This document shows, piece after piece, positions 5,200 to 59,510 of a stretch of DNA of 64,000 nt; the stretch's first letter is position 1; every line of letters starts with the position of its first letter. Source of the DNA: an uncultured Pelagibacteraceae bacterium. Its GTDB lineage: Bacteria; Pseudomonadota; Alphaproteobacteria; Pelagibacterales; AG-422-B15. Below the pieces are notes generated by a model. The model was not told the origin of the DNA and searched no databases. It was given only the letters and a program-made list of their open reading frames with translations. Position numbers and translations under genes: made by a program. The DNA is taken from positions 4,319 to 68,318 of the forward strand of contig CACPJE010000001.1 in assembly GCA_902634045.1 (NCBI GenBank), in the 5' to 3' direction.

Positions 5200-6275
5200 T
5201 ATTCAGAAAAAAAATATTCAGTATAATCATTTTTTTTATTTTTCTTGGTTGCGCACAACCACAATCTTCTCTTCCAGTCTATAATGAGCAGTTCACATTA
5301 GAGGAACAAAAAATTCAATCACAATTATTTGCAGAAAGTTGGCTAAATGCCTATTTGGATCTGTCTGAGGTAGGATATAGGATTTTGTTCGGTGCGGCTG
5401 ATTTGTGTCTTGAAGAAGATCAGATCTATGACATTGGCATAGATGTTGCCACAAAATTTAGTGGACCAGAAAAAATAAGAGAGGAAATATCTGTTATTTT
5501 AGATTTAGACGAAAGGCTAAGTATTGTTGCAGTTGGGGAAAATACTCCAGCTAGCAGGGCAGGACTTTTAAGAGGAGATAAAATAATTGTAATCGATAAT
5601 GTAACAGCTCCTGCAGGTGAAAATGCTTCAAAAGAATTTTATAAGATTATGAATAAAGAATATCCCAAGACTTATGAGTTTATTGTACTAAGAGGAGAAC
5701 TAGAGGTTCAAGTAAGTTTAGAGACATCCAAACGATGCAGATTTAATCATACTGTTGATTTTGATAATAATACCTTCAATGCTTTTGCAGATGGAAATAA
5801 TATGTATTTTACTCTAAGAATTACCAAGTGGCTCCTTCAGCAAGATCTAGGAGTGGCAATCGTGTATGCTCATGAATTAGGGCATAATGCTAATAGACAT
5901 ATTGATGATAAAAAAACAAATGCAGGCGTTGGAATGAGTGTTGGTTTACTTGCTGGTATTTTACTTGGGGGCACAGTTGGGCAAACTCAAGATCTAATGG
6001 ATATGGGAGCACAAATTGGAGCTAATCAATATTCAGTTGCTTATGAAAATGAAGCAGACTATTTAAGTTTATATGCATTAGCATTGTCAGGGTATGATAT
6101 TGAAGATACAGTAAATTTTTGGAGAAGATTTGCTGTAGAGGTTCCAAACTCTATTTATGCTAGCACAACTCACCCTTCAACGAGCGAAAGGTTTATTAGA
6201 ATGGAAGCTACTATAAAAGAAATACAAGACAAAATTAATAATGGAGATATTCTTTTACCTACTTATAATGAATAG
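5196..6275 (+). CDS. M48-type zinc metallopeptidase lipoprotein with PDZ-like segment
   Basis: GTG start overlaps the upstream stop (GTGA). Lipobox-like signal (IFFIFLGC), PDZ-like GLLRGDKIIVIDN, zinc motif HELGH, and downstream ENEADY. Confidence 0.78.
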   Translation: MIFRKKIFSIIIFFIFLGCAQPQSSLPVYNEQFTLEEQKIQSQLFAESWLNAYLDLSEVGYRILFGAADLCLEEDQIYDIGIDVATKFSGPEKIREEISVILDLDERLSIVAVGENTPASRAGLLRGDKIIVIDNVTAPAGENASKEFYKIMNKEYPKTYEFIVLRGELEVQVSLETSKRCRFNHTVDFDNNTFNAFADGNNMYFTLRITKWLLQQDLGVAIVYAHELGHNANRHIDDKKTNAGVGMSVGLLAGILLGGTVGQTQDLMDMGAQIGANQYSVAYENEADYLSLYALALSGYDIEDTVNFWRRFAVEVPNSIYASTTHPSTSERFIRMEATIKEIQDKINNGDILLPTYNE

Positions 6276-6370
6276 AAATCAATTTTGATGAGCTTAATTA
6301 ACGGATTACTGCTAATAATCGCAATGATTATAATTTTTTCACTTGGACTAAGTGGATTAATTGAAATTAT

Positions 6371-6826
6371 TTAACCAATTCTAAATTTTCTTTTAATCTT
6401 TCTTTTTTCCCTTACTGCCGTTAAAGGTTGATATGCTACTTTGTGGTGAGTTTGGCAGTATACAAACCCTTCATTAGTTGTGCGTCCACAAAACCTAAAG
6501 TCACTATTCTCAGGTTCTCCAATTGGCCACCTGCACAAGCCATCTTTTATTTCTAAGAATGGAGTTGGGTTCATTGGTTCATCCGTTTGGGTAGTAATCT
6601 CAATAATTTTTTGATTTTTTGGAATATGAATTTTTTTCTTTCTTATTATAGATATCCCTGAGCTTGGGCTTTTAGAAGCCATCCTCCCAGAAAGCCCAAG
6701 TCTATGAGCTTTTCCAATTACTGCATTTCTTGTTACGTCTCCTAATTCTGCAGCAATGCGACTAGCAGTTAAGCCCTCTTCCCAAAGTTTTTTTAGTTTT
6801 TCAATTCTTTCGTAGGTCCAAGCCAT
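6371..6826 (-). CDS. gcrA: Cell-cycle transcriptional regulator GcrA
   Basis: 151 aa. The N-terminus MAWTYERIEKLKKLWEEGLTASRIAAELG..TRNAVIGKAHRLGL is the conserved GcrA domain. C-terminal CRWPIGEP...FCG is also present. Confidence 0.92.
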   Translation of the reverse strand: MAWTYERIEKLKKLWEEGLTASRIAAELGDVTRNAVIGKAHRLGLSGRMASKSPSSGISIIRKKKIHIPKNQKIIEITTQTDEPMNPTPFLEIKDGLCRWPIGEPENSDFRFCGRTTNEGFVYCQTHHKVAYQPLTAVREKRKIKRKFRIG

Positions 6827-8959: not shown

Positions 8960-9868
8960 ATGAAACATTTTATTGAAATTAACGATTTCTCCAAAGAGGA
9001 GATTTTAAAATGCATCGATGATGCCATAAGACTAAAGAAAAAAAGTAGTCATCTTAGTTCTATTGCTTCAGGTAAAGTTCTTGCTATGATTTTTGAGAAG
9101 AGATCAACACGAACTAGGCTTTCATTTGATGTTGCTATAAGGCAATTAGGGGGGTCATCAATTGTATTAGACATTGGTGATATCCATTTAGGTGCTGGCA
9201 ATGAGAGCTTATCTGATACATCAAAAACTATTGCATTGTATGTTGATGCATTAGTTGTCAGAGTAAACAATCATAAAAATATTGTTGAAATGGCTAGAAA
9301 CTCATCAATTCCTATAATTAATGGTCTATCAAATATATCTCACCCTTGTCAAGTTATGGCAGATTTAATGACTATTAAAGAAGAAAAGAAGAGTTTAGAT
9401 CATTTGGATTTAGTTTGGATAGGTCCTATAACAAATGTAGCTCATTCATGGATAGAGGCATACAATAAAAAATTGGGATTTTCTCTTACAATCTGTTGTC
9501 CAGAGTCTTTACAGCGGAAGTATGAAGAAAAATGCAAACTTCATAATATTAATTTTAATAACGATATATTTGTTTCTGATACATCTAAAGATATTTTAGG
9601 TAAAGCAGATGTAATTATTACTGACACATGGGAGTCAATGGGAGAGAAGGTTGATAAAGAAGAGCTGCAAGAGCTTAAGAAGTTTACAGTTTCACAATCT
9701 ATAATGGAGATGGCTCCATCAGAGTGTTTATTCATGCACTGCTTGCCTGCTAATCGTAATCAAGAGGTTGAGGCAAAAGTAATTGATGGTCCATCATCAA
9801 GGGTTTGGCAAGAGGCTGAAAACAGACTTCATATTCAAAAGCAGATTTTAATTGAGTGTTTTAATTAA
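8960..9868 (+). CDS. argF: Ornithine carbamoyltransferase
   Basis: 302 aa with motifs STRTR, HPCQ, DTWESMG and HCLP. Confidence 0.93.
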   Translation: MKHFIEINDFSKEEILKCIDDAIRLKKKSSHLSSIASGKVLAMIFEKRSTRTRLSFDVAIRQLGGSSIVLDIGDIHLGAGNESLSDTSKTIALYVDALVVRVNNHKNIVEMARNSSIPIINGLSNISHPCQVMADLMTIKEEKKSLDHLDLVWIGPITNVAHSWIEAYNKKLGFSLTICCPESLQRKYEEKCKLHNINFNNDIFVSDTSKDILGKADVIITDTWESMGEKVDKEELQELKKFTVSQSIMEMAPSECLFMHCLPANRNQEVEAKVIDGPSSRVWQEAENRLHIQKQILIECFN

Positions 9869-48672: not shown

Positions 48673-51030
48673 ATGGAGTTAGATTTAACTGGATTCAATG
48701 TTAGAAAAACTCAGCCATATAATGCTGGTATTTTAGGTTTACCTGAAGATGTAGAGCGTTATGTAGCAAAAGCACAGGGACTAATTGGTTTTGAGACTTT
48801 TGCAGGAGATACAATTTCGATAATTAATTCAGAAGGCAGCCAACTTGCTGAAGTTGTTGCATTTGACAATTTAGGTAAATGCTCTTTAGAAATTATAAAT
48901 TGTAAAGCAAATAATGAAGCTTCATTTATAAAAAAAATATTATCGAATAGCCATGACAATAAATATCTTCTAAATAAATTAAAAAAGAAAAATATTGATT
49001 TTCATCAAGCTGTTTCTATAAATCTTTTTAATTTAGAAACAAAAGTCAGAGAGTCAATTGACCTAGAGTGTCATGAAGACGGTTTTGTTATTATTGCAGC
49101 ACCTGGAGAGGATATGGCAGTCGATGCACAAAATCCTGCAACAGATATAGAGGTAAGAGTTAAAAGAAAAAATAGAATTAATAATAAGTCTAATTATTAT
49201 TTGCCTCCTCCACTAGCTGATGTCAAAGATGAATTTATCATAAACAATAGCACAGCAACATCTTATGAAGTTGAATCAGGAGATTTTATTCAAGTAATCG
49301 ATTTATATGGAAGGCAATGTTCTGATTTTCAGGTTTTTGATGCTGCAAAATTGGAAAAGGGAATAGAGCTAAGCATTGATCCAATAGTAACCCGAAGTAT
49401 CATAGGATTAAATTATGCAAAGCCGGGGTTGTTTGCTAAATATTTTGATAGAGATCAAGACGCACTTGTTGAAGTTATTCAAGATACATGCGGAAGGCAC
49501 GATACATTTGGAAATGCTTGTAGTTCAAAATACTATGAAGATGTAGGGTATTTTGGTCACGCAAATTGTTCTGATAATTTTAATACTGCCCTTCAACCTT
49601 TTGGTTTAAATGAAAGGCGGGCATGGCAAGCTATTAACTTATTTTTTAATACTGGATTAGATGCAGCCAATGTTTTCTTTTTTGATTTGCCTTGGTCAAC
49701 ACCTGGAGACTATGTTTTATTTCAAGCTCAAAAAAACTTAGTAGTAGCTTCTTCTGCCTGTCCTTGTGATATTGATCCAGCAAATGACTGGAATCCGACA
49801 GATATATGCGTTAGAGTTTATTCTAAGAAAAACTTTTTTTCTAAAGCTATGGCTTATCGCAGGAATCCAGATTCAGATGTTTCTCTAACAAAGCAGACTG
49901 CTTTCCATGAATGTACATCTAAATTAACAAAAGATTACATAGAATTCGCAGGTGTCTGGATACCAAACAAATATGATAATTATGGAACCGTTGCAGAGTA
50001 TACAGCTTGCAGGAATAATGTAGCAATGATGGATCTTTCCTCTCTTAAAAAATTTGAGGTAGTTGGTCCTGATGCTGAAGAGTTAATGAATACTGCACTT
50101 ACTCGGAATATAAAAAAATTAGCAATCGGACAGGTTATCTATACAGCAATGTGCTATGAAAACGGTACTATGATAGATGATGGAACTTTATTTAAATTAG
50201 GTGATGCTAATTTTAGGTGGATTGGTGGAAGTGACTATTCTGGAGAATGGTTGAGAGAGTTAGGAAAGAAACTGGAACTCAGAGTTTCAGTTAGATCTTC
50301 ATCTGATCAACTTCACAACATCTCAGTTCAAGGTCCAAACAGTAGAAATGTTTTATCAAAAATTATGTGGACTACACCTGCTAGCCCAGGAATTGAAGAT
50401 TTAAAATGGTTTAACTTTAATATTAGTCGTTTGAATGACCACCTAGGCATTCCTGTAATGCTATCTCGAACAGGTTATACAGGTGAACTTGGATATGAAG
50501 TTTACTGTCATCCAAAAGATGGCCCTAAAGTATGGGATGCAATATGGGAGGCAGGTCAGGAGTTTAATATAGCTCCGATGGGGTTTGCCGCATTAGATAT
50601 GTTAAGGATTGAAGCTGGTCTTATTCTAGGCGGAAATGAATTTAGTGATGAAACAGATCCATTTGAAGCAGGCATTTCTTTTACTGTGCCGCTTAAGTCT
50701 AAAGAAGCTAATTTCATTGGACGAGATGCGCTTGTTAAAAGAAAAGAAAATCCATTGCGTAAACTAGTTGGATTAGAAATTGAAGGTAATGAACATTGCG
50801 GTCATGGAGATTGTGTTCATATAGGAAGAGGGCAGGTGGGAGTTATTACAAGCGGCATGATCTCGCCTACTCTAAATAAAAATATAGCATTGTGCAGAAT
50901 TGATATTCATTCTTCTGAAAAAGGAACAGAAGTTGAAATTGGAAAACTTGATGGTCACCAAAAAAGAATCAAAGCAAAAATCACTTCATTTCCTTTTTAT
51001 GATCCAACAAAAAGTAGAGTTAAAGCTTAA
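48673..51030 (+). CDS. tdm: Trimethylamine N-oxide demethylase (Tdm-type: DUF1989-like + GcvT-like fusion)
   Basis: 785 aa. The N-terminal half carries GDFIQVIDLYGRQCSDFQVFD and a Cys-rich ACPCD. The C-terminal aminomethyltransferase-like half carries MDLSSLKKFEVVGPDA and RTGYTGELGYEVY. Confidence 0.85.
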   Translation: MELDLTGFNVRKTQPYNAGILGLPEDVERYVAKAQGLIGFETFAGDTISIINSEGSQLAEVVAFDNLGKCSLEIINCKANNEASFIKKILSNSHDNKYLLNKLKKKNIDFHQAVSINLFNLETKVRESIDLECHEDGFVIIAAPGEDMAVDAQNPATDIEVRVKRKNRINNKSNYYLPPPLADVKDEFIINNSTATSYEVESGDFIQVIDLYGRQCSDFQVFDAAKLEKGIELSIDPIVTRSIIGLNYAKPGLFAKYFDRDQDALVEVIQDTCGRHDTFGNACSSKYYEDVGYFGHANCSDNFNTALQPFGLNERRAWQAINLFFNTGLDAANVFFFDLPWSTPGDYVLFQAQKNLVVASSACPCDIDPANDWNPTDICVRVYSKKNFFSKAMAYRRNPDSDVSLTKQTAFHECTSKLTKDYIEFAGVWIPNKYDNYGTVAEYTACRNNVAMMDLSSLKKFEVVGPDAEELMNTALTRNIKKLAIGQVIYTAMCYENGTMIDDGTLFKLGDANFRWIGGSDYSGEWLRELGKKLELRVSVRSSSDQLHNISVQGPNSRNVLSKIMWTTPASPGIEDLKWFNFNISRLNDHLGIPVMLSRTGYTGELGYEVYCHPKDGPKVWDAIWEAGQEFNIAPMGFAALDMLRIEAGLILGGNEFSDETDPFEAGISFTVPLKSKEANFIGRDALVKRKENPLRKLVGLEIEGNEHCGHGDCVHIGRGQVGVITSGMISPTLNKNIALCRIDIHSSEKGTEVEIGKLDGHQKRIKAKITSFPFYDPTKSRVKA

Positions 51031-51040
51031 TAAATAATTT

Positions 51041-51406
51041 ATGCCTTCATTGTCTGATTTAAGAAAAGTTTCTAATATTGAAACTCTTAAATGGGAATTA
51101 TTAGAAGAAGAATCTGCTGGTCAGGATGGGAACACTTGGTGGTACAACTTGAGTTATGATCTTGAAACAGGCGAGGGTTCATATCTTTACAAAATGGATC
51201 CAGGAACTAAGTCTAAGCCTCACTTGCATGAAGGCCCTGAGGAATTTTTTATTTTAGAAGGCGACTTAACTGACTCTGATGGCTATACTTATAAAAAAGG
51301 AGACTTTGTACATCTTTCATCCGGATCATTGCACTACAGTACAACAGTTACTGGCTGCACAATAGTTGTGACTCATAGAGGGAAATATATTTTTACTGAC
51401 AATTAA
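51041..51406 (+). CDS. Cupin-domain protein (ChrR-like cupin), unknown function
   Basis: 121 aa with both cupin metal motifs intact (PHLHEGPEEFFILEG and GDFVHLSSGSLH). Starts 10 nt after the tdm stop. Confidence 0.75.
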   Translation: MPSLSDLRKVSNIETLKWELLEEESAGQDGNTWWYNLSYDLETGEGSYLYKMDPGTKSKPHLHEGPEEFFILEGDLTDSDGYTYKKGDFVHLSSGSLHYSTTVTGCTIVVTHRGKYIFTDN

Positions 51407-51417
51407 TAGTATTCATT

Positions 51418-52632
51418 ATGAAAAGTTTTTTTGATAAGAGTTATTTCTCTTATTTAGTTATATTAGGTGGAAGTGTCCTATTACTGATTTCATTTGGAAT
51501 CAGGCATACATCAGGACTTTATCTTGTCCCAATCTCAGATCACTTACAGACTGGTCGAGAAATATTTGGTCTTGCTGTTGCGATTCAATTTCTTTTAATA
51601 GGCATCGGATCACCATTGTTTGGAGCTCTGGCAGATAAATATGGATCAGGAAAGGCAGCCTTGCTAGGCGTTTTTTTGGTTTTAATTGGTTTGTATTGGA
51701 TGGCTCACGTTGACTCCAGTTTTGAGATCATAGCTTCTCAGGCAATATTTGGATTAGGTGCGGCTGGATGTGGAACAGCTGTTGTATTAGGAGCAGTTGG
51801 AAAATCAGTACAAGAAAAAAATCGCACTCTATCTTTAGGTATTGTTATGGCTGCAGGATCCCTGGGTCAATTTTTGCTAGTACCTCTAGCAGGATTTCTT
51901 ATTCAAATCTCTGATTGGTCTGCATCCATTCTTTACTTAACTTTAATTGCTGCAATCATGCTTATTTTTTGTTTTCCATTAGATTATGCTGGAAAGTCAG
52001 ACACTATTGAAAAAGATACAGGCCAATCTTTAAAAGATGCACTGAAGGAAGCATTTAAATCAAAAAGTTATAATTTGCTTACCATAGGTTTTTTTGTATG
52101 TGGATTTCATGTTGCTTTTATTGCAACTCACCTTCCTGCTTATTTAGAAGATCTAAATCTTCCCTCATGGATTGGCAGTTGGTCTTTAGCCTTAATAGGA
52201 TTATTTAATATTTTTGGGACTTTAATTTTTGCAAGACTTGGTGATAAAATTTCTAAGAAAAATCTTTTAGTTGTACTTTATTCTCTGCGGTCTGTTCTCA
52301 TTCTTATATTTTTAATACTTCCTAAGAATGAAATAACAATATTAGTTTTTGCTGCTGTACTTGGAGTATTGTGGTTAGCAACCGTTCCTTTGACGAGTGG
52401 AATTATAAGCGTCGTATTTGGTATTAAATATATGTCTATGCTTTATGGATTTACTTTTCTATCACATCAATTCGGATCTTTTTTAGGATCGTGGTTTGGA
52501 GGAAGACTATACGATATGTATGGATCCTATGACTTGATGTGGTGGTTATGCATACTCTTGGGATTTGCATCTGCAGCTATGCATATGCCGATTGTAGAGA
52601 AGGCAGTACCAAGATTATCTTACCAATCTTAA
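51418..52632 (+). CDS. MFS transporter (oxalate/formate antiporter-like), substrate unknown
   Basis: 404 aa, 12 TM, with an MFS loop motif (GALADKYGSGKA). Confidence 0.85.
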   Translation: MKSFFDKSYFSYLVILGGSVLLLISFGIRHTSGLYLVPISDHLQTGREIFGLAVAIQFLLIGIGSPLFGALADKYGSGKAALLGVFLVLIGLYWMAHVDSSFEIIASQAIFGLGAAGCGTAVVLGAVGKSVQEKNRTLSLGIVMAAGSLGQFLLVPLAGFLIQISDWSASILYLTLIAAIMLIFCFPLDYAGKSDTIEKDTGQSLKDALKEAFKSKSYNLLTIGFFVCGFHVAFIATHLPAYLEDLNLPSWIGSWSLALIGLFNIFGTLIFARLGDKISKKNLLVVLYSLRSVLILIFLILPKNEITILVFAAVLGVLWLATVPLTSGIISVVFGIKYMSMLYGFTFLSHQFGSFLGSWFGGRLYDMYGSYDLMWWLCILLGFASAAMHMPIVEKAVPRLSYQS

Positions 52633-52634
52633 AG

Positions 52635-53969
52635 CTATTTAGACTCCATAAACGTTTTCATCGAGTCATCCATCGCTTCACCCCATGCTGTATGGTGCAA
52701 GGGAGCGACAGTTCCGGTTACAGGCGAAGAAAAAGAACGATTCCGATATGTCATAATATCCTCTTCTTTATTATGTTCCCATTCCTTAAAGTGAACCCGA
52801 ATTAACTCAAAATCTATTTCTGGATAATCGGTAGCTTCATGTAAATCCTTTGTATATTCTGTTTGGAAGTCAATCATTTGAATTGGATCTTCTAATTTCT
52901 CTTCTAAAGCAACCCAATTATTAATATCTTTATCAATTTCCTCAGCACTAGGCATCTCAATTTTTCCCATGATAACGTCTCTTGCATACCAGGCTTGGCA
53001 ATCAAACATATTAAAAGTATGAAATTGGTCTTGCATTCCGAGATACATCAAACTGTGATTGTCTTGCCAAACAACCCCTTTATAAAGTTTAGGAGGATAG
53101 AGTCTATTGTGTGTTTTAAGTTTTAAGTTATCTTCTAAGTAAGGAAAATGATGAAGGTAACCACTACATAATATTAATGCATCTACATTTTGAGTATGAC
53201 CATCTTTAAAGGTAGCTTTGTTTCCATCAAGTTTATCAAGGTAATGAACTTCTTTCATTCCATCAGGCCACTTAAAACCCATTGGATTATTTCTATAGCC
53301 AATCGTTACAGATTTAGCTCCATACTTGTAACACTGAAGTGCTACATCTTCAGCAGAATAGCTGCTTCCTAATACTACTACATCTTTACCTCTAAATTCT
53401 TCTGCATCCCTAAAATCGTGAGAGTGCAAGATACGACCAGGAAAAGATTGCATGCCTTCATACTCAGGTATGTAAGGAACAGAAAAGTGTCCTGAGGCTA
53501 CCACTAAATAATCAAAATTTTCTTTTGAAGTTGTATTTGCCTTTTTATTTGTTGATGTAATTTCATATTGTGACCCATTATAAATTACATTTGTTACAGC
53601 GGTTCCAAATCTAATATATTTTTTTACGTCAGCATCCTTTGCTCGACCTAAAATATAATCAAATAAAACTTCTCTTGGAGGAAATGATGGTATGGCTTGA
53701 CCAAAATGATGATCAAAAGAATAGTCAGCAAACTCTAAACATTCCTTTGGTCCATTTGACCAAAGATAGCGATACATGCTATTAGGAACAGGATCTCCGT
53801 ATTGATCTGAACCAGTTCTCCAACTATAGTTCCATAAACCCCCCCAATTATCTTGCTTTTCAAAGCAAACAACGTCTGGAATTGTTTCCCCTTTAGCTTC
53901 AGCTTGTTGGAAAGCTCTTAGCATTGATAAACCGCATGGTCCAGAACCTATAATTGCAACTCTACTCAT
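52635..53969 (-). CDS. tmm: Trimethylamine monooxygenase (bacterial flavin-containing monooxygenase)
   Basis: 444 aa. FAD site GSGPCG, NADPH site GSSYSA, and FMO motif FPGRILHSHDF (FxGxxxHxxxF). Confidence 0.9.
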   Translation of the reverse strand: MSRVAIIGSGPCGLSMLRAFQQAEAKGETIPDVVCFEKQDNWGGLWNYSWRTGSDQYGDPVPNSMYRYLWSNGPKECLEFADYSFDHHFGQAIPSFPPREVLFDYILGRAKDADVKKYIRFGTAVTNVIYNGSQYEITSTNKKANTTSKENFDYLVVASGHFSVPYIPEYEGMQSFPGRILHSHDFRDAEEFRGKDVVVLGSSYSAEDVALQCYKYGAKSVTIGYRNNPMGFKWPDGMKEVHYLDKLDGNKATFKDGHTQNVDALILCSGYLHHFPYLEDNLKLKTHNRLYPPKLYKGVVWQDNHSLMYLGMQDQFHTFNMFDCQAWYARDVIMGKIEMPSAEEIDKDINNWVALEEKLEDPIQMIDFQTEYTKDLHEATDYPEIDFELIRVHFKEWEHNKEEDIMTYRNRSFSSPVTGTVAPLHHTAWGEAMDDSMKTFMESK

Positions 53970-54229
53970 TTGAACTCCTAATTAAATTTTTTTTATTCTA
54001 ATTTATATAATTGAAAAAAAGCAATGAATTAAAATCTGTTCTCAGGGTATGAAGCTATTCGTTTATATATATATTTAATATATAATTTTAACCACATGTA
54101 GTATCTTATGGTTAATCGTATAGCATATATAGATTTTTCTTTTCGATCTCAATTGACTCGTTAAGTCACCAGCAATAGAATTTTTAATAATAATTAAATT
54201 TAATTAAGAACCTTTCGAAGGGGGGAGAC

Positions 54230-55180
54230 ATGTTAAAATCTTTAAAAATGCTAACTGCAATGCTTGCGCTTGTTGCTCTTACTTTTACTTCAAGTGCTGT
54301 TTATGCTGCAGATAGTAAAAAACCAATTAGAATTCCTACTCACAACTGGTCAAGCCAAGTTGTAATGTCATATGTGATCGGTGGAATTTTTGAAAGTATT
54401 GGTAATAATGTTGAATATGTACCTGCTGACTCTCAAGCAGTTTATGAATCAATTCGTCAAGGCGATGTAGATATTTCTCATGAAGTTTGGGAATCTGCTT
54501 TTGGTTCATCATTTGATGCTGCTCGTGATGCAGGTGGTTTGCTTGACTGGGGTGACCATGAAGCTAGAACTCTAGAGGACATGGGTTATCCAAACTGGGT
54601 AGCTGAACAAGGACTATGTCCAGGATTACCTGATTGGACAGCTTTAAAAAATCCTGATTGTGCTGCAAACTTTGTAACACCTGACTCTGGTGGTAAAGGC
54701 CGTTGGTTAGAAGGTCCTCAAAGTTGGCACCAAGATTTAATGCCTCAGCGTCTTGAAGCGCTAGGCTTGGATGATTTATGGATGGTTAAGTTTGCCGGTG
54801 GTGCTGATGCACTATGGGCTGAACTAGAAGCAGCAGAAAAAGAAGGTAGAGGAACAATAATCTTTAACTGGACACCAAACTTCACAGATGGTGCTGGTTT
54901 TACATTTATTGATTTCCCACCATTCTACGATGGCTGTAGACCAGAAGATGGAGGCGATGGAGCATGTGGTTCACCAGATGGATATCTGAAAAAAGCAGTG
55001 AACGAAAATTTTCCTAATACGCATCCACAAGCAGCGGCCATTTTCAAGAAAATGTCATTTACAACAAGTCATATAGGTGCAATGGCATCTCTGGTTGACG
55101 TTGATGGAATGACACATGAAGATGCTGCAGCAGCTTGGTTAGCAGATAATGAATCTACGTGGAAAGCATTTATTGATTAA
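54230..55180 (+). CDS. tmoX: Periplasmic substrate-binding protein, glycine-betaine/TMAO family (TmoX-type)
   Basis: 316 aa with a signal peptide ending AVYA/AD and a Trp-rich mature domain. Strong purine-rich SD (AAGGGGGGAG). Sits next to tmm and upstream of the ATPase and permease genes. Confidence 0.8.
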   Translation: MLKSLKMLTAMLALVALTFTSSAVYAADSKKPIRIPTHNWSSQVVMSYVIGGIFESIGNNVEYVPADSQAVYESIRQGDVDISHEVWESAFGSSFDAARDAGGLLDWGDHEARTLEDMGYPNWVAEQGLCPGLPDWTALKNPDCAANFVTPDSGGKGRWLEGPQSWHQDLMPQRLEALGLDDLWMVKFAGGADALWAELEAAEKEGRGTIIFNWTPNFTDGAGFTFIDFPPFYDGCRPEDGGDGACGSPDGYLKKAVNENFPNTHPQAAAIFKKMSFTTSHIGAMASLVDVDGMTHEDAAAAWLADNESTWKAFID

Positions 55181-55207
55181 TTGTTTAACTACATAGATTT
55201 TTAAATT

Positions 55208-55247
55208 AAAATCTCCCCTAGTTGTTTAACTAGGGGAGATTTTTTTT
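55208..55247 (+). terminator. Intrinsic terminator/attenuator after tmoX
   Basis: 16-bp perfect stem (AAAATCTCCCCTAGTT / AACTAGGGGAGATTTT) with a 4-nt loop (GTTT), running into an 8-T tract. Located 28 nt after the tmoX stop and 15 nt before the next ATG. Confidence 0.8.
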
Positions 55248-55262
55248 AATATTTTTAAAATC

Positions 55263-55712
55263 ATGAAAAGATTATTTTTATTTATTATTTTAACTATTTT
55301 TGTTTGTAATTCAGCTTTTGCACGTAAGACAGGATGTGAAGGTGATTGTGAAAATGGGATAGGAACATGGACCTATACAGATAAAACAGTCTATGTAGGT
55401 GAGTGGCGTGGTAGTTTAAAGCACGGGGAAGGTGTCGAAACTTGGCCAAATGGATATATATACACTGGTGAATTTGTGGATAGTAAATGGCAAGGACGAG
55501 GGATTTTAATTTTTCCAGATGGTGCTAAATATGAAGGTGATTGGTTTGATGACAATATGAATGGTCAAGGAACTTTTACTTGGGCAAATGGAGATATATA
55601 TGTCGGAGAATTTATTGACAGTAAAAGACATGGACAGGGCACTAAAACTAACGCTGATGGATCGGTAATGAAGGGTATTTGGGAAGAAGGAGGACTGGTT
55701 GAGTCTAACTAG
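55263..55712 (+). CDS. Secreted MORN-repeat protein
   Basis: 149 aa with a signal peptide (MKRLFLFIILTIFVCNSAFA). Four full MORN repeats (YVGEW..GEG, YTGEF..GRG, YEGDW..GQG, YVGEF..GQG) plus a partial fifth. Confidence 0.85.
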   Translation: MKRLFLFIILTIFVCNSAFARKTGCEGDCENGIGTWTYTDKTVYVGEWRGSLKHGEGVETWPNGYIYTGEFVDSKWQGRGILIFPDGAKYEGDWFDDNMNGQGTFTWANGDIYVGEFIDSKRHGQGTKTNADGSVMKGIWEEGGLVESN

Positions 55713-55721
55713 TAAAGAGAA

Positions 55722-56267
55722 ATGGCTAAAGATAACATTTTAAGAAAGTATAAAGAAACACCAGAAGGCCTTAGAGGATTGTTAGAACTAGGCGGGTTAA
55801 TGCTCTTAATAATTTCTATATTTTTTATTTTTTACATAGTTTTTCCTGGAAAGGAAAAAATACCTGAGGAGGATATTGTGCAAGAGAGTAACCAGTCTGA
55901 AGAAAATTATAAAGAAGTAATTAATTCACTTCCAAGTGGCCAAGTAAATTTCTACTCAAGTAATGAAGGTTATGAATTAACACTTGCTGAATATGAAGCA
56001 GTTTGCAAAAATACTAAAATAGTAACTCAGCGATCTATAATGGGTGCACATATTACAGATATTAGAGCACAAAAGTTGTATAAAGATAATGGAAACAATC
56101 TTGATAGTTCTTCAGTAGTTTGGGATAGTTTAGCTAATGTATGTATTGTTGAGTATGTTTTAGAAGCTGTGCATGGCACAACTGATACAATTACAGTTAT
56201 AGGTGAAGCAAAGGGGTTTTTGAATACTGGTATAGATACTAGAGTATATTTTATAAAAAATTTTTAA
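55722..56267 (+). CDS. Membrane-anchored protein, unknown function
   Basis: 181 aa. Short charged N-terminus, one TM (LGGLMLLIISIFFIFYIVF), and a C-terminal domain of about 130 aa with no motif I recognise. Confidence 0.6.
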   Translation: MAKDNILRKYKETPEGLRGLLELGGLMLLIISIFFIFYIVFPGKEKIPEEDIVQESNQSEENYKEVINSLPSGQVNFYSSNEGYELTLAEYEAVCKNTKIVTQRSIMGAHITDIRAQKLYKDNGNNLDSSSVVWDSLANVCIVEYVLEAVHGTTDTITVIGEAKGFLNTGIDTRVYFIKNF

Positions 56268-56312
56268 AAGAGATTTATTTAATATTTTAGGATACGATAT
56301 AAATATAATTAT

Positions 56313-57353
56313 ATGTCTTCTTCTCAATCAATAATTAAGTGTGAATCTGTCTATAAGATTTTTGGAGCCAATGCTGAAAAGATGCTCAAAGATGTTAATG
56401 GTAATGTCGATGCTAAAACATTTCAGGAAGCAGGCTGTATTGTTGGAGTAAATAATGCATCATTTGAAGTTTCAAAAGGAGAAATGCTTGTTGTAATGGG
56501 TCTATCAGGATCAGGAAAATCAACATTGCTTCGCTGCATTTCAAGACTTACAGACGCAACATCTGGTAAAATTTATATTGATGGTCAGGACTTATTAAAA
56601 CTAAAAAATAAGGAGCTAATAGAATTAAGAAGAAATAAAATGGGCATGGTTTTTCAAAGCTTTGCCTTATTGCCACATAAAACTGTGCTTGAAAATATTG
56701 CATTTCCTCTACAAATCAAAGGTATTAAGACTCAGGAGAGTATCTCTAGAGCAATGGATATGCTTAAGCTTGTAGGTCTTGATGGTAGGGAAAATTATTT
56801 CCCAAGAGAATTGTCTGGAGGACAGCAACAAAGAGTAGGTATTGCTAGGTCTCTAGCAGTAGAGCCAGATATATGGTTTTTAGATGAGCCTTTTTCAGCT
56901 TTAGATCCATTAATTCGAAAAGAAATGCAGGATGAATTTTTAAGACTACAAAGCTCACTAAAAAAAACTATTTTGTTTGTTACTCATGATTTTGATGAAG
57001 CATTGAAACTTGCAGATCGAATTGCAATTATGAAAGATGGAATTATTGAACAATTAGACTCACCTGCAAATATTGTTTTAAATCCAGCAACAGAATATGT
57101 ACGTAAGTTTACGCAAGAAGTTCCTAGAGAAAAAGTTTTGAAAATTGAATCTGTAATGGATCCAGTTGATGATGATCAGAATCTTAGTGATTTTAAAGTT
57201 TTAAAAGATGCAGTTCTTGAAACGGTTGCAGAAAAAATTTTAGAGCAAGATAAATCTGTGCCAGTTGTTGACTCTAATCAAAATGTTGTTGGCATTATCA
57301 AGCCTTCAAAAGTAATTCATGTTGTTTTTGGAAATACTGACATTAACTCGTAA
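56313..57353 (+). CDS. tmoV: ABC transporter ATP-binding protein, ProV-like (TmoV-type)
   Basis: 346 aa. Walker A GLSGSGKST, signature LSGGQQQRV, Walker B IWFLDEPFSALD, and a C-terminal regulatory (CBS-like) extension. Confidence 0.9.
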   Translation: MSSSQSIIKCESVYKIFGANAEKMLKDVNGNVDAKTFQEAGCIVGVNNASFEVSKGEMLVVMGLSGSGKSTLLRCISRLTDATSGKIYIDGQDLLKLKNKELIELRRNKMGMVFQSFALLPHKTVLENIAFPLQIKGIKTQESISRAMDMLKLVGLDGRENYFPRELSGGQQQRVGIARSLAVEPDIWFLDEPFSALDPLIRKEMQDEFLRLQSSLKKTILFVTHDFDEALKLADRIAIMKDGIIEQLDSPANIVLNPATEYVRKFTQEVPREKVLKIESVMDPVDDDQNLSDFKVLKDAVLETVAEKILEQDKSVPVVDSNQNVVGIIKPSKVIHVVFGNTDINS

Positions 57354-57356
57354 TCT

Positions 57357-59510
57357 ATGGATTTTGTAAATAAACATTCAAAACTAATTCAATGGCTTTT
57401 GTTGTTACTTACTTTTTTTGGATTAATTTTTGCAATAGATATACCTGAAGGATATAAATTCATAAGAGCTGAAGCTGAGCATGTAGTAGTTGAGGGTCAG
57501 TCTACTTACAGCTTGTTTGGAATATCTGTAAGTTATACCTATTTTAATTTTCTTTGGAGATTACCACCTTGGCTAGGATGGCTTCCTATTTGGATAAATG
57601 ATGCAGTATATTTTTTATTGAATGAATGGTGGCTAATAGATCTTTGGGATTCTGATTTTGGTGATTACAAAACACGACCATTTATGATGCATGTGACTAG
57701 GTTCATTTCATCAATTTTACTTTTTTTAATTGAATTTGTTCGTGAAATATTCATTGGTGGAGTTAAAACAGTAGTAGCATTTACTAGCTGGGACTGGATT
57801 GATACTAACCCTTGGGCAGAATTTCTTGGAATCCCTTGGACCATTGTCACTGTTGGTGCAATTTTAATGGGATATAACTTGGCTGGAAGAGGCTTAGCAG
57901 TTTTTGCTGGCGCTACCATGATTTATATTTCTGTGTTTGGTCAATGGGAACCGTCGATGCAAACACTATCATTTATTCTCGTAGCGGCACCAGTTTCTTT
58001 TATTCTTGGTTTAAGCCTGGGAGTATTAGCTTACAGAAGCAGAAGAATTGAAAAGATATTATCTCCTATTCTTATGGTTATGCAAGTAACGCCCCAATAT
58101 GCTTACCTTGTCCCTGCAATGGTTCTTTTTGGAATTGGAGATCAAGCTGGAGCGATTGTAACAATAGTTGTTGCAACTCCACCCATGATCTTATTAACGG
58201 TACTAGGCCTGAGAGCAGTATCTCCTGAAGTTATTGAAGCTGGCAAAATGAGTGGATGTAGTGATTTGCAACTTACCCTTAAAGTGTTAATCCCAACTGC
58301 AAAAAGAGATATTTTAATCGGCGTTAATCAGGTCATCATGGTGTGTTTATCGATGGCCGTTATTGCATCATTTATAGGAGCTAAAGGATTAGGCTGGAAT
58401 TTATTATTGGCTTTAAATCGTCTTAACATTGGATTAGCTCTAGAGGCCGGAGTTTGTATCACTCTAATTGCTGTTCTTTTAGATAGAATGTCTTTAGCAT
58501 GGGCAAATAAGCAAAAAGATTATTTTACTAACCTTAATTTTTTTCAGCGTTATAAATATACTTTAATTTTTATTGGAACAGCAATAATAGGATCGATACT
58601 TGCTTATTTAGGTTCTTTCTATTTCAAAGAGGGATTTAATTATTTATTTGAAGTTCCTCATAACAAAGGATTATCTAACGCAGATTCCTGGAATAATGGT
58701 GTTGATTGGATATGGGATACATTTTTTCATCCACTAAAAATATTTAATACATGGTTAATCGTTGATGTGCTCCAGCCTATGAGAGCTGCTTTTCTCCGTA
58801 TGCCAGTTGTTGCAACATTTGTTTTAGTTATGGGGGCGGGATATATCATTGGTGGAATTAGATCAGCTCTTATTGTAGGAGGACTAACTCTGTTTATTGC
58901 TTTAACAGAATGGTGGGATAGAGCGCTAGTTACTGCATACATGGCAACTTGCGGGGTTATAATTTCAACTATAATTGGAGTGACAGTAGGTACTTTTTGT
59001 TCTCAAAATAATTATGCTTCAAAATTCATTTTAGGTGTTTGTGACACCTTCCAAACCTTCCCTTCATTTGTTTATTTAATTCCTGTTATGATGTTATTTG
59101 GAGTAACAGATACAGCGGTATTAATTGCTGTGGTTGTTTATGCGACTATTCCTGCAACACGCTACACAGTTGAAGGCCTTCGAAGTATTCCTCCAAGTTT
59201 ACACGATGCTGCAGCCATGTCTGGGGTAAATACTTTTCAAAGATTAATTAAAATAGATTTTCCTCTAGCTTTTCCTCATATTATGCTTGGAGTTAATCAA
59301 ACTGTTGTCTTTGCTTTATTCATGGTGATTATTGGTGCATTCATAGGAACTGAAGATTTAGGACAATATATTTTAAAGGCTTTATCCGATAGGCAAGGAG
59401 CTGGTAAAGGTTTAATACTTGGAGTTTGTGTTGCTTTTATTGGTCTGATTGTTGATAATTTAATCAGAACCTATGCTGAAAGAAGAAAGAAAGAATTAGG
59501 TTTCAGTTAA
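57357..59510 (+). CDS. tmoW: ABC transporter permease, tandem-fused ProW-like (TmoW-type)
   Basis: 717 aa. Two permease modules, each with its own EAA-type loop (EAGKMSGCSDLQLTLKVLIP and HDAAAMSGVNTFQRLIKIDFP). Confidence 0.88.
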   Translation: MDFVNKHSKLIQWLLLLLTFFGLIFAIDIPEGYKFIRAEAEHVVVEGQSTYSLFGISVSYTYFNFLWRLPPWLGWLPIWINDAVYFLLNEWWLIDLWDSDFGDYKTRPFMMHVTRFISSILLFLIEFVREIFIGGVKTVVAFTSWDWIDTNPWAEFLGIPWTIVTVGAILMGYNLAGRGLAVFAGATMIYISVFGQWEPSMQTLSFILVAAPVSFILGLSLGVLAYRSRRIEKILSPILMVMQVTPQYAYLVPAMVLFGIGDQAGAIVTIVVATPPMILLTVLGLRAVSPEVIEAGKMSGCSDLQLTLKVLIPTAKRDILIGVNQVIMVCLSMAVIASFIGAKGLGWNLLLALNRLNIGLALEAGVCITLIAVLLDRMSLAWANKQKDYFTNLNFFQRYKYTLIFIGTAIIGSILAYLGSFYFKEGFNYLFEVPHNKGLSNADSWNNGVDWIWDTFFHPLKIFNTWLIVDVLQPMRAAFLRMPVVATFVLVMGAGYIIGGIRSALIVGGLTLFIALTEWWDRALVTAYMATCGVIISTIIGVTVGTFCSQNNYASKFILGVCDTFQTFPSFVYLIPVMMLFGVTDTAVLIAVVVYATIPATRYTVEGLRSIPPSLHDAAAMSGVNTFQRLIKIDFPLAFPHIMLGVNQTVVFALFMVIIGAFIGTEDLGQYILKALSDRQGAGKGLILGVCVAFIGLIVDNLIRTYAERRKKELGFS

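Follow-up and report, generated by a model that had tools for sequence, protein, structure and literature searches.

A conserved terminator-shaped hairpin, a MORN-repeat protein gene and an orphan membrane protein gene lie between tmoX and tmoV in SAR11 bacteria

The tmoXVW operons of Ruegeria pomeroyi and other Rhodobacterales encode importers of the OpuA/ProU type, with an OpuAC substrate-binding protein (SBP), a ProV-like ATPase and a fused double ProW-like permease, all of which they have in common with the trimethylamine N-oxide (TMAO) transporter of SAR11. Turnover of TMAO and methylamines feeds marine nitrogen cycling and aerosol precursors. The SBP, TmoX, is one of the proteins expressed most strongly by the ocean's most abundant heterotroph, and one report ranks tmoX with the strongest transcription start sites, and its product with the most abundant proteins, that SAR11 shows in the sea (PMC5069720). 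In the literature searched, a single study was found that tested the function of the SAR11 transporter; it demonstrated TMAO binding by the TmoX orthologue of HTCC1062, reported that tmoX of this strain is TMAO-inducible, and rescued the growth on TMAO of an R. pomeroyi tmoW mutant with an HTCC1062 genomic fragment starting 350 bp upstream of tmoX; the cluster, cloned from genomic DNA, was named tmoXWV, with no mention of intervening genes (PMC8918994). Here we describe the tmo locus in a 64,000-nucleotide (nt) stretch of DNA from an uncultured Pelagibacteraceae bacterium (contig CACPJE010000001.1; hereafter the window), in which a terminator-shaped hairpin and two additional open reading frames (ORFs), one for a MORN-repeat protein and one for a putative membrane protein (ORF2), lie between tmoX and tmoV. 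The explanation that we favour overall, with modest confidence, is that the terminator splits the operon into an abundant TmoX part and a weakly expressed MORN-ORF2-tmoV-tmoW unit, and that the MORN-ORF2 pair is an accessory of the translocator.

On the plus strand, the order of the locus is tmoX, an 82-nt spacer, the MORN ORF, a 9-nt spacer, ORF2, a 45-nt spacer, tmoV and tmoW (Table 1), and ORF and domain calls placed all of these genes at the positions given by a first-pass annotation of the same DNA. With its OpuAC SBP, ProV ATPase, fused double ProW permease and linkage to tdm and tmm, the locus is recognisable as a TmoXVW importer operon. Using TmoX as bait, we collected 80 loci from species-representative genomes, all on SAR11 or SAR11-like contigs (HTCC1062 not among them), and scored the insert by tblastn and ORF tracing in the 72 loci that were long enough to judge it. 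In 72/72 loci, tmoX and tmoV flank an intact MORN ORF (124-149 amino acids (aa)) and an intact ORF2 (174-185 aa), with order and orientation unchanged, and the identical five-gene block was found in three further metagenome contigs and in four long contigs (L088-L091) that were reached through an ORF2 homologue. The distance from the MORN stop to the ORF2 start ranges from -1 to +12 nt across lineages, with frequent overlap, suggesting translational coupling of the pair. ORF2 is followed by tmoV after 40-74 nt, and after just 7 nt in L070, implying co-transcription. The flanks differ between clades: in the clade of the window tdm is co-oriented, with or without the genes for a cupin, a major facilitator superfamily (MFS) transporter and tmm; in Ia-like genomes tdm is divergent and tmm lies downstream; and in L088-L091 GcvT/EamA genes lie upstream and MTHFR downstream. 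Despite these clade-specific flanks the five-gene tmo block is unbroken, and the pair moves with tmoVW through every flank rearrangement.

Pairwise ratios of nonsynonymous to synonymous substitution rates (dN/dS, Nei-Gojobori method) were 0.06-0.21 for the MORN gene and 0.065-0.32 for ORF2, compared with 0.04-0.11 for tmoX and 0.04-0.08 for tmoV. Synonymous divergence is saturated among the loci in which the ORFs stay intact, and the amino acid evolution of ORF2 and the MORN protein is 2-4 times faster than that of TmoX, TmoV and TmoW. Both the presence of the pair in relatives and the purifying selection that acts on it agree with the first-pass claim of two genuine additional genes: the MORN ORF and ORF2 are real protein-coding genes that belong invariably to the SAR11 tmoX-...-tmoVW block. 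No mention of either gene was found in the literature searched, including searches for MORN together with SAR11 or Pelagibacter, and SAR11_1304-1308, which we had guessed to be the HTCC1062 tags for the locus, turned out to be other genes. The conservation in 72/72 loci makes it very probable that the published HTCC1062 fragment (PMC8918994) carried both the MORN gene and ORF2.

Several observations on the collected loci should be added. One locus from a single-cell assembly (L053, AH-321-B08, 6100-6420), in which MORN-ORF2-tmoVW is inverted relative to tmoX, was discarded because the middle of tdm is joined there to the middle of a third inserted ORF (ORF3), indicating an amplification or assembly chimera. 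ORF3 lies between the tmoX terminator and the MORN gene in about 40 of the 72 loci, with a tmoX-MORN gap of 547-602 nt (for example L018 9027-9512, HTCC8051), and is absent from the clade of the window; its product of about 161 aa has a signal-peptide-like N-terminus and two Cys residues, and no match to it was found in Pfam or NCBIfam. The contigs L001, L003, L004 and L005 come from metagenome-assembled genomes labelled Flavobacteriales, Marinimicrobia, SAR324 and Gammaproteobacteria; their tmo blocks are 81-85% identical to that of the window, and they look like mis-binned SAR11.

Directly past tmoX, the first-pass annotation had recognised a terminator with a 16-bp stem and an 8-T tract, 15 nt before the MORN start codon, and both the predicted fold and the coordinates uphold this description. 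The hairpin itself (55208-55243) begins 28 nt after the tmoX TAA, has six GC pairs among its 16 pairs and runs into the T-tract (55240-55247), from which it is exactly 15 nt (55248-55262) to the MORN ATG. In isolation it folds with -23.4 kcal/mol; the surrounding 101 nt gave a z of -4.5, with 0/200 shuffles folding as well, and a scan of both strands of the window under moderately strict criteria (8 bp or more of stem, 4 or more GC pairs, T-rich tail) returned this hairpin and nothing else. A stem-loop with a T-tract is present in 72/72 SAR11 loci, beginning 18-33 nt past the tmoX stop (74 nt in L004, which has two GC-rich hairpins). RNAalifold analysis of 62 distinct sequences yielded a 13-pair stem in which changes on the two sides compensate each other at 6/13 pairs (for example CCCCTAG/CTAGGGG, CCCAAC/GTTGGG and CCCGAT/GTCGGG), as is characteristic of an RNA structure under selection. 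Thus, a GC-containing stem-loop followed by a U-tract after a stop codon, with covariation across homologous sites, identifies the element as one of intrinsic-terminator shape. A scan of 53900-56400 against Rfam gave only sub-threshold terminator look-alikes (Ref55 with 39.9 bits against a 43-bit threshold, PyrR and NsiR1). Because the terminator is conserved upstream of MORN-ORF2-tmoVW, these genes need either read-through or a nearby promoter, as had been argued from the window sequence at the outset.

Intercistronic hairpins after binding-protein genes are well known, with the repetitive extragenic palindromic (REP) hairpins of malE-malF and the hisJ-hisQ hairpin as classic examples. The SAR11 element resembles them in that a stable stem-loop lies directly past the stop codon of an SBP that is needed in excess, and differs in its full intrinsic-terminator shape with U8, in its covariation, and in the two or three extra genes that precede the ATPase gene. 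With high confidence, the hairpin would terminate most transcripts and/or protect the tmoX 3' end, and TmoX would thereby be produced in large excess, with MORN, ORF2, tmoV and tmoW expressed at a low, matched level. The simplest account is the classical mechanism of SBP-dependent importers, in which the hairpin ends or stabilises the tmoX message and a minority of transcription reaches the genes of the membrane components. The terminator is a known kind of device. The rescue of the R. pomeroyi tmoW mutant described above indicates that tmoW is expressed despite the upstream terminator.

As to the route by which the genes after the hairpin are transcribed, the 15-nt stretch from the T-tract to the MORN ATG contains nothing recognisable in the clade of the window, which makes read-through the likely route there. 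In Ia-like loci, a conserved TGTGTAA[AG][AG]T is located exactly 6 nt before the MORN ATG, and of the 32 copies present in 1.1 Mb of loci, 30 occupy this position (for example L012 9013-9022 with the MORN ATG at 9029, and L007, L018, L020, L023 and L072); the sequence is absent from the window. Its geometry is that of a -10 hexamer for a leaderless transcript, and it may provide an additional route of MORN expression in Ia-like lineages. Another conserved element, TTTCGTATAAC or TTTCATATAAT, is found 9-13 nt before the tmoV ATG (L018 10472-10537 and equivalents; window 56268-56312). Neither of these MORN-proximal and tmoV-proximal elements is a general motif in the window, and TTT[TA]GT[GA]TA, which was considered as a general SAR11 promoter, was rejected, with two matches in the window and neither of them near a gene start. 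In Ia-like loci the ORF2 stop shares bases with a Shine-Dalgarno-like TAAGGAGG, located 55-65 nt upstream of tmoV, after which no small ORF is conserved.

The MORN protein matched Pfam MORN (PF02493) in four stretches with 98.5 bits (cut-off 22.5; E 6e-29). Its YxGEW/F...G.G motifs are located at residues 44, 67, 90 and 113, with a partial repeat at 136, so that the first-pass count of 4-5 repeats corresponds to four full repeats and one partial one. The protein consists of a predicted signal peptide (aa 1-20), a conserved GCxEGxC cap, the four full repeats and the partial C-terminal repeat. By inspection, its N-terminus MKRLFLFIILTIFVCNSAFA|RK (MKR, a hydrophobic core and AFA|RK) resembles a type-I signal peptide, and a Cys-x3/4-Cys motif (GCxEGxCxNG) is invariant directly after the predicted cleavage site. 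No L-[AS]-[GA]-C lipobox was found by inspection, the residues before either Cys in the conserved ...S-A-F-A|R-K-T-G-C context not fitting it, and a weak LPAM_1 match in L088 (E 0.036) was below the cut-off. An AlphaFold2 model from 52 sequences (predicted local distance difference test (pLDDT) score 92.4) shows an N-terminal helix, corresponding to the signal peptide, and six beta-hairpins. The best phmmer match was Plasmodium MORN1 (6t4d, 1e-49), followed by other MORN1, RSPH1, junctophilin and MORN4 chains, and Foldseek with the model retrieved the RSPH1/MORN1 structures 8j07_A, 6t6q, 6t4d and 6t4r with template-modelling (TM) scores of 0.75-0.81 and E values of 5e-13 to 3e-12. All solved MORN relatives found were eukaryotic and no bacterial MORN structure was among the matches, in agreement with the earlier remark that MORN repeats are mostly known from eukaryotes.

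Tandem repeats above the gathering score and the beta-hairpin array of the model thus place the protein in the MORN family, as a predicted canonical array that adds to this known repeat family a member from an unusual compartment. With the eukaryotic arrays (MORN1 of Plasmodium, Toxoplasma and Trypanosoma, RSPH1, MORN4 and junctophilin) it shares the 23-residue YxGxW...G.G repeat and the elongated beta-hairpin sheet; it differs from them in its predicted periplasmic export, its 128 mature residues, its N-terminal Cys-x3-Cys cap and the lack of an attached catalytic or membrane domain. MORN arrays have been argued to be protein-protein interaction or dimerisation modules rather than lipid binders, and the membrane- or lipid-binding label historically given to them is disputed even for TbMORN1 (PMC7725318). 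The window protein has one 23-residue repeat (55599-55667, residues ~113-135) more than most SAR11 proteins (149 versus ~125 aa), and the extra repeat was also found in L001, L002, L005, L006, L082 and L086-L088, constituting a clade-level polymorphism in repeat number.

ORF2 has a basic N-terminal tail of about 20 aa, in which K9, K11, P14 and E15 are nearly invariant, a hydrophobic stretch at residues 20-42 (modelled as a helix at 15-40) and an acidic linker at residues 44-59, which has low confidence or is disordered in the model. The basic tail, the acidic segment after the helix and a pair of Cys residues point to an N-in/C-out topology, with the C-terminal part in the periplasm. The C-terminal domain of about 120-130 aa was modelled as an alpha/beta fold with four short helices, a short strand (75-77) and four long strands (AlphaFold2 mean pLDDT 77.9), and C95, C141 and the C-terminus DTRVYFIKNF are invariant. 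No significant match was found in Pfam, NCBIfam, PDB sequences, or solved or viral folds, so that the description of this domain as unrecognisable still stands. An exhaustive profile search of 1.84 billion representatives returned just 199 matches, nearly all of them fragments of the same SAR11 family, and no informative domain architecture. The 6,132 close homologues all belong to one SAR11 family, the named cluster members are all 'hypothetical protein', and no relatives were found in viral contigs. ORF2 is accordingly an orphan family, predicted to comprise single-pass N-in/C-out membrane proteins with a periplasmic alpha/beta domain. Duplications of the C-terminal part, or its fusions to unrelated N-termini, in P0121 (316 aa, from one 1.3-kb ENA contig), P0410, P0403 and P0363 are probably chimeric gene-call or assembly artefacts.

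Single-pass accessory subunits of ATP-binding cassette (ABC) machines are known, such as LptC of LptB2FG, MlaD of MlaFEB and CbiN of CbiMQO. Like ORF2 as predicted here, these have a single N-terminal transmembrane helix and a periplasmic domain and are encoded inside the transporter operon; ORF2 has no sequence similarity or detectable fold similarity to them, and their systems are exporters, lipid transporters or energy-coupling factor (ECF) systems, whereas tmo is a type-I SBP-dependent importer. In the plasmid-borne homologues of Rhodobacterales (Gemmobacter, Paracoccus aminophilus and Leisingera), the order is SBP, ATPase and permease, with a gap of 56-77 nt between the SBP and ATPase genes that leaves no room for an extra ORF. 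The permease of these operons is 43-45% identical to TmoW, and the SAR11 TmoW has in addition an N-terminal extension (1-45) and Trp/Asp-rich insertions at 94-109 and 138-152 (IDLWDSDFGDYKTRPF and TVVAFTSWDWIDTNP), and also at ~425-432. From this comparison, the MORN-ORF2 insertion is SAR11-specific: the SAR11 operons have MORN and ORF2 (and ORF3 in many lineages) inserted and Trp-rich segments added to TmoW, whereas those of Rhodobacterales are contiguous and TorS-flanked. A perfect 9-11 bp GC hairpin without a clear U-tract follows the SBP gene in the three Rhodobacterales loci (L092-L094), so that operons of this type seem generally to have a stem-loop distal to the SBP gene.

The position of the pair 3' of the terminator, together with its coupling within itself and to tmoVW, suggests that it is expressed at the level of the translocator and not at that of TmoX. 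This expression level, the combination of a membrane anchor with a protein-binding array, and the co-occurrence of SAR11-specific TmoW segments with SAR11-specific genes favour an accessory complex. We tentatively propose that the MORN protein and ORF2 form a membrane-anchored periplasmic complex with the TmoV2W translocator, in which ORF2 would be the anchor and the MORN array would act as a protein-protein scaffold, for example by docking or positioning TmoX at the SAR11-specific Trp-rich loops of TmoW. A stronger form of this proposal, which we consider rather unlikely, is that the two are overlooked subunits of the importer, a scaffold that engages the Trp-rich TmoW loops, captures or positions TmoX, and aids either the uptake with nanomolar affinity for which SAR11 is typical or TMAO-dependent control in cells without the TorS/TorR system that adjoins the homologous operons. 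Should this hold, a type-I SBP-dependent ABC importer would for the first time have an accessory periplasmic module, and a periplasmic MORN protein from a bacterium its first assigned function. If uptake is modulated by the pair, two components have to be added to models of high-affinity transport in SAR11 and to heterologous reconstitutions; otherwise, the locus is still a clear case of a conserved terminator that determines how much binding protein is made relative to the translocator in a regulator-poor genome.

The conservation and terminator parts of this account are much firmer than the functional part, on which several points weigh. The accessory role in quaternary-amine uptake or sensing that the first-pass annotation put forward is based on the invariant gene linkage, which is suggestive but weak. 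SAR11 is known for its conserved gene order, so that linkage alone is weak evidence of a shared function. The homologous transporters of Rhodobacterales evidently work without MORN or ORF2, the sequence and structure searches gave no clue to the activity of ORF2, and vector read-through could also account for the published complementation (PMC8918994). Distant relatives of the ORF2 domain (~25% identity, with the same Cys pair and an LPxG motif) were found in L081 31-984 and in L083-L085 (e.g., L085 1531-2166), on marine contigs of 26-30% GC; one is fused to a multi-transmembrane N-terminus and the others adjoin genes for a 157-aa membrane protein and a methyltransferase. No ABC transporter or MORN neighbour was found within the 1.4-4 kb of contig around these relatives, suggesting that the domain is not intrinsically transporter-bound. 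The adjoining 157-aa protein was ruled out as a MORN homologue by hhalign (probability 1.5%).

These observations leave room for the main rival to an accessory role, namely that MORN-ORF2 is a self-standing envelope pair unrelated to TMAO, for example in envelope organisation, which shares the low-level tmoVW unit in a promoter-poor, streamlined genome. The non-ABC contexts of the distant ORF2-like proteins beside small membrane proteins, the Rhodobacterales transporters that lack the pair, and the faster amino acid evolution of MORN and ORF2 all speak for such hitch-hiking; against it, the pair was never found apart from tmoX/tmoVW in the 72 loci and 7 further contigs despite their differing flanks, and all 6,132 close ORF2 homologues are of the same SAR11 family. 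We regard this as a real possibility, though one that we lean against.

Compared with hitch-hiking, a sensory role is improbable. The pair would then report periplasmic TMAO or the occupancy of TmoX, replacing the TorS/TorR-type system of Rhodobacterales, whose operons adjoin genes for a TorS-like sensor kinase and a response regulator (L092 1-2633, L093 1-2542 and L094 1-2555). No such kinase and regulator pair was seen in any SAR11 locus, and the TMAO-inducibility of HTCC1062 tmoX (PMC8918994) and the nearly invariant residues of the cytoplasmic ORF2 tail are consistent with sensing, but this tail of ~20 aa has no recognisable output domain and no regulator gene is linked to the pair.

It was also suggested in the first-pass annotation that an 11-nt direct repeat could allow alternative pairing at the hairpin, which would make it a regulated, switchable attenuator with the upstream copy competing for the 5' arm. 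The repeat itself was found at both positions claimed: TTGTTTAACTA occurs at 55181-55191 and at 55222-55232, in the hairpin loop and 3' arm, and its two window matches against 0.15 expected make a chance occurrence unlikely. However, none of 94 related loci has the repeat at the tmoX-3' site, and the nearest relatives L001, L002, L005 and L006 are no exception. The upstream copy pairs with the 5' arm by about 6 bp, with -3.7 kcal/mol as against -23.4 kcal/mol for the terminator, and the minimum free energy and centroid structures both retain the terminator. With no Rfam family at the gathering score, neither a conserved competitive antiterminator nor a known aptamer was detected; the alternative pairing is not supported, and an attenuator at this site is highly improbable. 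That both ORFs are spurious open frames in AT-rich DNA has in its favour only their lack of annotation names and can practically be dismissed: none of the 72 loci has lost either frame although synonymous divergence is saturated, dN/dS lies well below 1, the MORN ORF has a canonical Pfam match, and the structure models are of high confidence.

Table 1. Features of the tmo locus and its upstream neighbours in the window (positions as counted from the first letter of the window)
Feature	Position	Strand	Basis or remark
tdm	48673-51030		upstream of tmoX
cupin (121 aa) and MFS transporter (404 aa)	51041-52632		between tdm and tmm
tmm	52635-53969	-	upstream of tmoX
promoter-like site 5' of tmoX	54153..54181	+	TTGACT-17 nt-TAGAAT; 10/12 consensus match only
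tmoX, periplasmic TMAO-binding protein (316 aa)	54230..55180	+	Pfam OpuAC 4e-37
upstream copy of 11-nt direct repeat TTGTTTAACTA	55181..55191	+	sequence match
hairpin of intrinsic-terminator shape (16-bp stem, 4-nt loop, T8)	55208..55247	+	fold, conservation, covariation
MORN-repeat protein, predicted secreted (149 aa)	55263..55712	+	Pfam MORN, AlphaFold2 model, dN/dS
ORF2, predicted single-pass inner-membrane protein (181 aa)	55722..56267	+	hydrophobicity, AlphaFold2 model, dN/dS
ORF2-tmoV spacer (45 nt) with TATAAA/TATAAT-like hexamers	56268..56312	+	equivalent of conserved TTTCGTATAAC element in other SAR11 clades
tmoV, ProV-type ABC ATPase (ABC_tran and C-terminal CBS)	56313..57353	+	Pfam
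tmoW, fused double ProW-type permease (BPD_transp_1 x2; 717 aa)	57357..59510	+	Pfam

Upstream of tmoX, sequence inspection showed a strong Shine-Dalgarno sequence GGGGGGAGA between the promoter-like site and the tmoX ATG, and consensus promoter matches around the tmoX region showed no enrichment over shuffles. The gene content of the methylamine island varies: the MFS gene is missing in the similar L087, and both the cupin and MFS genes are missing in L002, L005 and L006. The window TmoX is 75-88% identical to the TmoX proteins of 80+ SAR11 loci, and 77-80% identical to those of subclade Ia (e.g., HTCC8051, L018).

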